Shown here: piece after piece, positions 36,778 to 39,137 of the stretch
How positions within the stretch are numbered: the stretch's first letter is position 1
How the letters are laid out: each line of letters begins with the position of its first letter
NCBI GenBank assembly: GCA_964016885.1
Contig: OZ024743.1
Coordinates: 106,888,001-106,952,000 of the forward strand
Direction of reading: 5' to 3'
From: Eledone cirrhosa
Taxonomy: Eukaryota
Length of the DNA: 64,000 nt
Position numbers and translations under genes: made by a program
Notes under the pieces: generated by a model
What the model was told of the DNA's origin: nothing
The model's database searches: none
Seen by the model: only the letters and a program-made list of their open reading frames with translations

Positions 36778-37383
36778 TAATTGTTTCTACTTTTGGCACA
36801 AGGCCAGCAAATACACAGTACAATACTGGTACGTTATTTTATCGACCTCGTAAGGATGAAAGGCAAAGTTAAACTTGGCGCGATTTGATTTCAGAATGGC
36901 AAGGGGCGTAACTCTATGCGCCAAAGCATAGTGTCCGACCCTGTACCGATACTGCCAATCCACCGATAATAATAATGTTTTCTGATTTTAGGCACAAGGC
37001 CAAAAATGTTGCGGGGAGGGGAAAGTCAATCAAATCGACCCCAATACATCACTGGTGCTTTTTGTATTGACACCGTAAGGATGAAAGGCAAAGCTCATCT
37101 TGGTGGGATTTGAATTCAGAACGTAAAGGGCCCTAACTCTATGTCACAAAGCAAGGTGTCCGATGCTGACGTTACACCGAATGATAATACCAATAATTGT
37201 TTCTAATTTTGGCACAAGGCCAGCAATTACCCAGAGCATTACTGGTACTTTATTTTATCGACCCCGTAAGGATTAAAAGCAAAGTTAACCTCGGCGGGAT
37301 TTGAACTCAGAATGGCAAGGGCCTTAACTCTATACGTCAAAGCATGGCATCCGACCCTCTACCGATACTGCCAATCCACCGCC
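36778..37383 (-). mobile_element. Three head-to-tail CORE-type SINE copies
   Basis: Copies at about 36778-36965, 36976-37178 and 37195-37383, each with ggcacaaggcc...aaaggcaaag...gatttgaa.tcaga, separated by short aat-rich spacers. Confidence 0.88.
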
Positions 37384-37489
37384 CTGATAATACCAATAAT
37401 GCTAGTAGAAATCATAGTAGGAATATATATCCTATTGTCATCTTTTCACCATGATATATATCTTTCTCTCTCTCCCTCCACCCTCTCTT

Positions 37490-37554
<65 letters not shown>

Positions 37555-37985
37555 CGTAAAATAAGAAAATATCTTTAAAAAAAATTTTTTACAAAATTTT
37601 TTACTTACTTACTTAAATTTTCACTCCAACTAATTAGTTTCTGCAATGGGATAAATGGACGTGCATCTGTGCGCTTATGTTAGTTGATATATTAAATTAT
37701 CTATATTTATCTCCAAATCACTGATTTGTCGAGCAAACCTGCCAAAACCACTTCAACATTTTTTTTGGGGTGTTAGTAGGCGTCAGTCATCTTACCATCC
37801 CATTCCTTCTAACTAGCCTCTGTGTCACGTGATTGATTCTTTAGAATCGGCCATTTGACTAGAAGCAGTGAGAATTTCAGTACATGGAATCCAGTCCTCG
37901 CCAGCTGTTCTATCTACCGAATTATTATTATTTTTATATGAGCCGCCAGTGTCCGCGCATTGCCTGGAGACTTAGCTGAGAATAG

Positions 37986-38067
37986 ACTCCCTGATGACGC
38001 AATGAATTCTCGACAGTTGGATTACGTAACTGTCTTTATCCCATTGCAGAAACTAATTAGTTGGAGT
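37986..38067 (+). ncRNA. Type I hammerhead ribozyme, canonical core (unit 1)
   Basis: actcc-CTGATGA-cgcaatg...cattgca-GAAA-ctaattag-TT-ggagt. There is an inner hairpin gacagtt/aactgtc, and stem III is the palindrome ACTAATTAGT. Confidence 0.88.
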
Positions 38068-38541
38068 AAAAATTTAAGTAAGTAAGTAAAAAAAATTTTT
38101 TTAAATTTTTTTAAAAGATATTTTCTTATTTTACGTCTTTTATATTATTGTTCTGCATCCTCCTGCATTGAACCACCTAGGTACTATGACATAACCTGTG
38201 TATTTGCTGGCATGGACGTGTATCTGTGCGCTTATGTTAGTTGATATATTAAATTATCTATATTTATCTCCAAATCACTGATTTGTCGAGCAAACCTGCC
38301 AAAACCACTTCAAAATTTTGTTGGGGTGTTAGTAGGCGTCAGTCATCTTACCATCCCATTCCTTCTAACTAGCCTCTGTGTCACGTGATTGATTCTTTAG
38401 AATCGGCCATTTGACTAGAAGCAGTGAGAATTTCAGTACATGGAATCCAGTCCTCGCCAGCTGTTCTATCTACCGAATTATTATTATTTTTATATGAGCC
38501 GCCAGTGTCCGCGCATTGCCTGGAGACTTAGCTGAGAATAG

Positions 38542-38623
38542 ACTCCCTGATGACGCAATGAATTCTCGACAGTTGGATTACGTAACTGTCTTTATCCCAT
38601 TGCAGAAACTAATTAGTTGGAGT
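38542..38623 (+). ncRNA. Type I hammerhead ribozyme, canonical core (unit 2)
   Basis: Same motif as 37986-38067, shifted by 556. Confidence 0.88.
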
Positions 38624-39137
38624 GAAAATTTAAGTAAGTAAGTAAAAAATTTTTTTTTAAATTTTTTTAAAATATATTTTCTTATTTTACGTCTTTTATA
38701 TTATTGTTCTGCATCCTCCTGCATTGAACCACCTAGGTACTATGACATAACCTGTGTATTTGCTGGCATGGACGTGCATCTGTGCGCTTATGTTAGTTGA
38801 TATATTAAATTATCTATCTATATATATATATATATATATATATCATCCACTGAAAAATTATAGGAGCCCACTTGAATACATATCTATTGATGGTATACAA
38901 GCTCCTACATAAATTGGTATAATTTCACCCAAATTGTAGGAATCCTATAATGAAACGAGACGTCCGTCTGGGAGGAGATATATTCGATATGTCTCATATG
39001 AAATAATACAGCCAATTTTCCACGCAATAGTTAGCACCCCGAACGCTTAATTAGGAATATAATCACTTATTTCCTAATGTTTATTGAGTGAGTTGGAATT
39101 TGGCCGGAGTATCGCTAAAAAGCTTTCTCCGATATTG

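Follow-up and report, generated by a model that had tools for sequence, protein, structure and literature searches.

The insertion described here, found in a window of 64,000 nucleotides of the Eledone cirrhosa genome (contig OZ024743.1), is an unexceptional member of a young non-coding retrozyme family with thousands of copies, and its main content is a two-end architecture of the Penelope type. It is likely that this hammerhead retrozyme, which lies in (TA)n and encodes nothing, is pasted in by the reverse transcriptase (RT) and endonuclease of a Hydra-type Penelope-like element (PLE), its ends falling at two fixed sites, hereafter A and B. By genomic definition the element is a non-LTR retrozyme, which inserts like a PLE; it is neither an autonomous PLE nor a canonical hammerhead. 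The main texts of the papers cited below leave two questions open, namely the way in which animal retrozymes enter genomes and the reason for the inverted arms and one-sided tail of Penelope-like insertions. The RNA of the retrozyme is small and defined, its two start sites are mapped, and both a signal and an enzyme can be proposed as candidates, so that one in vitro reaction could address both questions.

The insertion in the window

The insertion (37545-38823) is composed of an inverted arm of 111 bp and about 2.1 forward units of 556 bp, with (TA)n on both flanks (Table 1); unit positions are numbered from 37656. The two forward units, followed by the 55-bp start of a third, are 98.2% identical over 613 bp and carry CTGATGA (at 37991 and 38547) and GAAA, which confirms the near-identical tandem units of the original prediction. 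The RNA of 556 nt that it had expected between two cuts would agree with the GTT triplets, as the predicted cuts after 38062 and 38618 lie 556 nt apart. The 10-nt palindrome of stem III is not only present but extends to 12 nt (38051-38062 and 38607-38618); in the monomer, it folds into a stem III of 3 bp closed by a loop of 4 nt. As had also been noted, the inverted copy stops in loop II: its arm, which lacks the rest of the ribozyme but keeps stem III, the cut site and the helix II 3' half, ends at unit position 380, on the 3' strand of the helix II internal loop. When the limits first given to the insertion, 37545..38816, are compared with the alignment, the left one stands and the right one moves to 38817, after which a 4-nt duplication, likely due to slippage when copying starts, precedes (TA)n. 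The earlier reading of the locus is thus partly supported; what it made of the ribozyme and of the break inside it is taken up below.

No open reading frame is found in 37545-38823, where the longest ATG frame has 31 codons, and the single RT and GIY-YIG frame of an autonomous PLE is therefore absent. The tail between sites A and B contains bulged hairpin A, which shows one compensatory pair between the retrozyme family and a sister family (see below), and a long hairpin (38197-38249) with compensatory changes. The CACGTG-box block may be a promoter element.

Table 1. Features of the insertion and its flanks, in window coordinates.
Feature	Position	Strand
(TA)n on the left flank, the likely target	37506..37544	.
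Inverted arm covering unit positions 380-490, its outer end being the short one (fixed site A)	37545..37655	-
Head-to-head joint of two 5'-truncated arms, 1 base in common	37655..37656	.
Forward arm, made up of two units plus the first part of another, its outer end being the long one (fixed site B)	37656..38817	+
Bulged hairpin B, a 2-nt bulge between stems of 3 bp and 6 bp, 5 nt past internal site B (37706)	37711..37733	+
CACGTG-box block, 13 bases identical in the sister family; second copy 38379-38398	37823..37842	+
Type I hammerhead 1, predicted cut after 38062	37986..38067	+
Hammerhead 1, stem I	37986-37990/38063-38067	
Hammerhead 1, core	37991-37997	
Hammerhead 1, helix II	37999-38004/38042-38047	
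Hammerhead 1, distal hairpin	38012-38034	
Hammerhead 1, GAAA	38049-38052	
Tail of 118 nt from site A (38145) to site B (38263)	38146..38263	+
Bulged hairpin A, a 2-nt bulge between two stems of 4 bp, 5 nt past site A	38150..38173	+
Bulged hairpin B, second copy	38268..38290	+
Type I hammerhead 2, predicted cut after 38618	38542..38623	+
Bulged hairpin A, second copy	38706..38729	+
4-nt duplication at the B junction, then (TA)n	38818..38843	+

The retrozyme family and its sister

In the 3.0 Gb of genome searched, exact patterns of the ribozyme 5' half and of the whole core have 1901 and 3969 matches, respectively, the latter on many contigs, against 0 for each reversed control; these counts are lower bounds on units, not on insertions. 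The genomic copy number, whose determination had been proposed, is thus high. The 39 best-scored unit matches, out of 1411 candidates, are 90-100% identical. The family displays the genomic traits of non-LTR retrozymes, i.e., short tandem units with one type I hammerhead each, non-coding, dispersed and in high copy number.

A sister family, with a unit of about 529 bp, about 70% identity and 178 core matches, retains the core, stem I and a 12-base palindrome. One of its loci (L167, G000:C1:152491789-152500148) is a single arm of 13 tandem units; at another (L145), a tRNA-like sequence was noticed by eye about 130 bases beyond the end. When the genome is searched for other ribozymes with the same stem III, 8 matches are obtained, 7 of which belong to the retrozyme family or its sister.

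Arms end at two fixed sites, one of each

Two sets of insertions were classified, the first composed of the first 56 insertions, in order along the largest contig, that carry the ribozyme 5'-half pattern, and the second of 31 further insertions from the remaining whole-core pattern matches. Set 1 contains 32 simple head-to-head insertions, 21 single-armed and 3 complex ones, and set 2 contains 18 head-to-head insertions and 13 single arms. Sense 3' ends fall at site A (38145 register) and site B (38263 register), 118 nt apart, and head-to-head insertions have one of each. A+B is found in 26 of the 32 in set 1, where the other 6 are unclassified (an end at neither site) and none has two alike, and in 17 of the 18 in set 2, with 1 unclassified; both sets together give 43 A+B of 50, 7 unclassified and 0 with two alike ends. 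Single arms end at either site (22 at A, 11 at B, 1 elsewhere). In the sister family, classified by eye, A+B is found in 11 of 15 insertions, the other 4 being unclear, one of which (L164) is a possible but interrupted B+B. Since all these tallies include only loci recognized by an intact ribozyme motif, they leave out very short insertions.

Sites A and B each end in TATAT and then run into (TA)n, and the target is a microsatellite, classified 3' ends running into (TA)n; as no empty site was seen, we infer that the (TA)n runs predate the insertions. At two loci (L010 and L107), rare ends lie in (CA)n and not in (TA)n, the junction being moved to a CA-compatible base. The two kinds of junctions differ: a (TC)n run or a duplicated four-base unit is present in 19 of 69 B junctions, vs. 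0 of 79 A junctions (p = 8e-8). Since TC is present in the template of site B and next to absent at site A, this suggests slippage at the start of copying.

A bulged-hairpin pattern is found exactly twice per unit in both retrozyme families, and 0 times on the minus strand. After shuffling, its mean number is 0.11 per shuffle, and the probability of two or more is 0.008. The hairpins sit 5-7 bases past A and B in both families.

The two different fixed stops of the arms likely reflect a Penelope-type enzyme, borrowed by the retrozyme, that copies its RNA from both ends of one DNA cut. In the literature on retrozymes and Penelope-like insertions, covered mostly outside subscription journals and by main texts, we found neither a strict one-of-each rule nor twin hairpins, and neither B-only slippage nor a retrozyme-PLE hybrid.

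A candidate partner among coding Hydra-type PLEs

Two coding PLE families of the genome were compared with the retrozyme. Family 1, to which a GIY-YIG-like fragment at window positions 2647-3123 leads, has frames of about 808 aa and a hammerhead in its pLTR. Family 2 is young (99% identical, 1275 candidates). Both are like the retrozyme in their two-end rule and in their bulged hairpins, found past both ends. Over 46 loci, family 1 has 29 simple head-to-head insertions, 23 of which are A+B, 1 is A+A (L220) and 5 are unclassified; in family 2, A+B is found in 3 of 3.

Hydra motifs are present in both families, and those of family 2 comprise DKT, CxCx5C, CxxC and CxH, following the list of PMC8557442 (section 11). 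Pfam and PDB sequence searches leave the partner PLE proteins unmatched, and the Atlas clusters for family 2 have HTH_animal/GIY-YIG shares of 13-100%. Motifs and Atlas clusters together thus argue for a Hydra identity of the partner proteins.

The retrozyme, which encodes nothing, shares with these Hydra elements only short end signals, no extended DNA homology being detected between the unit and families 1 and 2 beyond them (best local E 0.14-1.7). The end-signal matches to family 2 are each weak alone (E 1.7), yet in register: the tail of family 2 measures 115 nt, 17 of 21 letters are alike around site B, and 11 bases of the 3' strand of its hairpin are identical to those of the retrozyme. 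On these sequence signals, family 2 appears as a closer match than family 1.

A further link is provided by one hybrid insertion (L073/L235), in which a retrozyme arm ending at A is joined 5'-5' to a family 2 arm ending at B. The joint is devoid of TA and contains a 7-base inverted copy (fold-back) of the PLE's own upstream letters. It is the only hybrid among the 87 sampled loci, and no further one is found among 166 other loci scanned against PLE families 1 and 2. One event with two templates explains this hybrid; it could also result from two successive insertions. Taken together, these sequence comparisons designate family 2 (L223-L235) as the best candidate partner, a designation for and against which we consider the chances to be about even.

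Several other observations concern these PLEs. The fragment at window positions 2647-3123 and another at 5-361 correspond to GIY-YIG-like C-termini of Hydra-type PLEs. Hammerheads of family 2 3' ends, followed by (TA)n, are found at window positions 1274, at the long site, and 33691, at the short site. The 3' untranslated region of family 2 (L223-L235) contains a long (TA)n tract, together with a second hammerhead-like half that is defective, and at one locus (L141) a retrozyme is inserted in the (TA)n tract of family 2.

The hammerhead: a kept fold with probably attenuated cleavage

The core motifs CUGANGA and GAAA and a UH cut triplet are present, and no core position is altered in more than 4 of about 116-129 segments. 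The predicted fold forms stems I and II and a distal hairpin (z -3.1), helix II being enlarged by a 7x7 internal loop and this hairpin. In a set of 25 ribozymes (24 of them distinct) selected among the loci retrieved, compensatory double changes relative to the sister family are found in helix II (2) and in the distal hairpin (3), each being essentially one event between the two families; helices I and III are near invariant, which makes covariation uninformative there. Comparative evidence of this kind indicates that the hammerhead fold is conserved in each unit. Rfam gives 0 matches at gathering score within the 64-kb window.

The hammerheads had been described as canonical, which does not hold: the foot of helix II (10.1-11.1) is an unpaired C and A in the retrozyme family, mostly A.A in the sister family, and is unpaired in 24 of 24 distinct rows. 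Among the 100 matches listed, C is found at the foot in 99 and A in 100. Unpaired in all 24 rows, the foot is a kept feature and not a sign of decay.

The locus had also been presented as the best candidate for demonstrating activity, which now appears doubtful. For the monomer, the predicted structure pairs the core with loop III (-21.6 kcal/mol, vs. -16.9 for the active fold), and the predicted probability of stem III is 0.11. A double-hammerhead dimer is predicted at -45.8, vs. -43.2 for two monomers, and in the best predicted dimer fold (-52.8) the cut-site U pairs with A14. A GUU triplet is, moreover, cut more slowly than GUC. There is a precedent in Xenopus, where 8 of 9 retrozyme dimers are reported without cleavage in vitro (10.64898/2026.07.22.740005, main text). 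Given the predicted misfold of the monomer and the dimer energies, the ribozyme is likely real but weak or dimer-dependent, and these models suggest a probably attenuated ribozyme that cleaves chiefly in dimeric form or with the help of a protein.

Template of the arms and proposed mechanism

Opposite arms of an insertion differ by a median of 1.1% (42 pairs), vs. 5.0% between loci, homopolymer tracts being masked. The other arm is in the closest third in 26 of 29 loci, kinship not being shown at the three others (L038, L079, and L086), and alleles private to one locus are common to both arms in 6 of 29. This kinship could also come from two RNAs of one source locus, or from later gene conversion. 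Of 39 pairs of adjacent units, 4 show differences at sites diagnostic of subfamilies. Unconstrained A arms, which played no part in the selection of loci, exceed 87 nt in 14 of 16 cases, and the other two, which start at 392 and 396, also extend past the cut. All these data indicate that arms cross the cut site and that the template was likely uncut or re-ligated, and usually of a single haplotype. Concerning possible scars of RNA editing, an excess of A-to-G changes on the sense strand was not found in the segments of the family; T-to-C changes are higher (5.4 vs. 3.2 per 1000, p = 0.013), a difference inflated by three old segments.

The mechanism that we propose, which is modelled in part on the anole PLE enzyme (PMC11167929), would proceed as follows. 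A Hydra protein, perhaps a dimer, would bind the two hairpins of one RNA and cut both strands of a (TA)n run. One DNA end would be primed at site A and the other at site B, via TATAT microhomology, and both copies would head towards the 5' end, the enzyme started at B displacing the strand in order to get past site A. Both resulting cDNA ends would then be joined head to head at variable points. As for the template, uncut at the ribozyme, we lean slightly towards a re-ligated one-unit circle copied round more than once; it would otherwise be an uncut multimer. The complete scenario, with one circle, two hairpin signals, a Hydra dimer priming at A and B, both enzymes running round that circle, the hybrid as partner family 2 caught in the act and B-only slippage seeding new (TC)n microsatellites in a telomerase-like manner, by a telomerase-related enzyme, is put forward tentatively, its full conjunction being somewhat improbable.

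The same Penelope-type insertion could use as template a long linear uncut multimer transcribed from tandem source loci, without any circle, the ribozyme being a nearly silent passenger. The anole PLE is a precedent, as its main substrate is uncut RNA and ribozyme mutants still insert (PMC11167929, main text). The predicted misfold of the monomer and the existence of long arrays as possible sources, such as that of 13 units at L167, go in the same direction, and read-through fits both templates. However, core and fold are kept, with compensatory changes, over about 30% divergence, a sign that cutting is under selection; the units of a given arm are clonal; and 5' truncation at each round would presumably shorten the arrays unless they are regenerated. 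We therefore regard a linear multimer as rather unlikely.

Alternatively, each arm could be made from a separate RNA by a separate enzyme subunit, the one-of-each rule then coming from an asymmetric protein dimer and not from the twin hairpins. Such a scheme, in which strand displacement is unnecessary, agrees with the lengths of the two arms, which are uncorrelated (rho 0.007), and the hybrid does require two different RNAs. It is nevertheless unlikely, as arms are nearly always of one haplotype, private alleles included, and as hybrids are found at 1 of 87 loci, even though the cell must also contain PLE RNA.

Inversion breakpoints

Breakpoints were analyzed as a set of 134 arm 5' ends from two positional samples. 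The original prediction pointed out the break inside the ribozyme; 18 of the 134 breakpoints fall within the ribozyme, vs. 19.8 expected (p = 0.81), which speaks against a special role of this break, and the break at position 380 in the window is an unremarkable effect of chance. Within four bases of the cut, there is no clear excess (5 of 134, vs. 2.2 expected, p = 0.07). In the A/T-rich self-complementary tract 3' of the ribozyme, 29 of 134 breakpoints are found, vs. 16.1 expected (p = 0.002, pooled); this excess comes from set 1 and is not repeated in set 2 (6 of 49), and is possibly an alignment effect. A fixed arm 5' end at unit position 508 was also considered and rejected, direct alignment showing variable 5' ends.

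An L1-type twin priming, or a DNA-level fold-back with tandem duplication where the ribozyme structure causes the break, would account for the 5' inversion and for the pooled A/T tract enrichment, but is very improbable and, by the end tallies, largely refuted: the arms have two fixed internal end sites without poly(A), 21 of 23 B arms run past site A with no stop there, which does not fit L1-type twin priming, and breakpoints show neither the excess in the ribozyme nor, in the second set, that in the A/T tract.

Comparison with known systems

The main texts of the sources cited allow the Penelope-type reading of the retrozyme to be set against known elements. Like metazoan non-LTR retrozymes (PMC7229834; 10.64898/2026.07.22.740005), it has non-coding tandem units with one type I hammerhead each, a low GC content, thousands of copies, a proposed PLE partner and an unpaired helix II foot, a feature already reported. 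A link between retrozymes and PLEs was proposed in PMC7229834 and argued from homology in 10.64898/2026.07.22.740005. The retrozyme differs from these elements by its 7x7 internal loop and distal hairpin in helix II, and by inverted arms, fixed ends and microsatellite targets, which the main text of PMC7229834 does not describe, the words 'inverted', 'microsatellite' and 'target site' occurring 0 times in it. In Xenopus, pLTR homology to a coding PLE is reported in 24 of 57 retrozyme families (10.64898/2026.07.22.740005), whereas none is found here with the two PLE families compared.

With PLE insertions (PMC8557442; PMC11167929), the retrozyme has in common an inverted 5' copy, a tail at one end, two start sites and an AT-rich target. 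The one-end tail and inverted 5' copy were already known (PMC8557442), and in the anole PLE two internal RT start sites bound the tail, both strands being cut and extended by an enzyme predicted to be a dimer (PMC11167929). The retrozyme differs by its lack of a coding frame and by its tail of 118 nt, vs. 30-40 in these elements. In the anole Poseidon_Ac, as described in PMC11167929, copying starts without homology to the cut DNA and without a strand-specific start site in vitro, whereas microhomology is present at both sites here and the A/B pairing is strict; these differences speak against carrying the anole scheme over unchanged. The Hydra clade of C-terminal-endonuclease PLEs resembles the retrozyme by (TA)n insertion and by its hammerheads (PMC8557442).

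The ribozyme itself is close to PLE hammerheads (PMC4209133), with the extra base after core position 9 that is typical of them, a G-C foot pair, a 6-bp helix II and a palindromic helix III; their cleavage is weak and dimer-dependent, as is predicted here. It differs in that the 3' side has another extra base (A), helix III is of 3 bp and helix II is much larger. A mismatch at the foot of helix II, U-U, is also known in axolotl HHR_Amex2 (PMC7229834).

Other elements in the window

Another retrozyme-like family is represented at window positions 6264-7223 by 2.1 tandem copies of 466 bp (99% matches), which carry a type I hammerhead core at 6883 and end in (TA)n. Three further hammerhead-like cores, of different sequence, are found at 5773, 14186, and 39581; in those at 5773 and 39581, the helix II foot seems to be unpaired too. 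The minus strand carries at 45249-50349 a LINE-like element with several broken frames, which match endonuclease, RT and zf-RVT. Finally, a dispersed repeat of about 200 bp is present three times, head-to-tail, at 36780-37400, and is also found beside many other loci.
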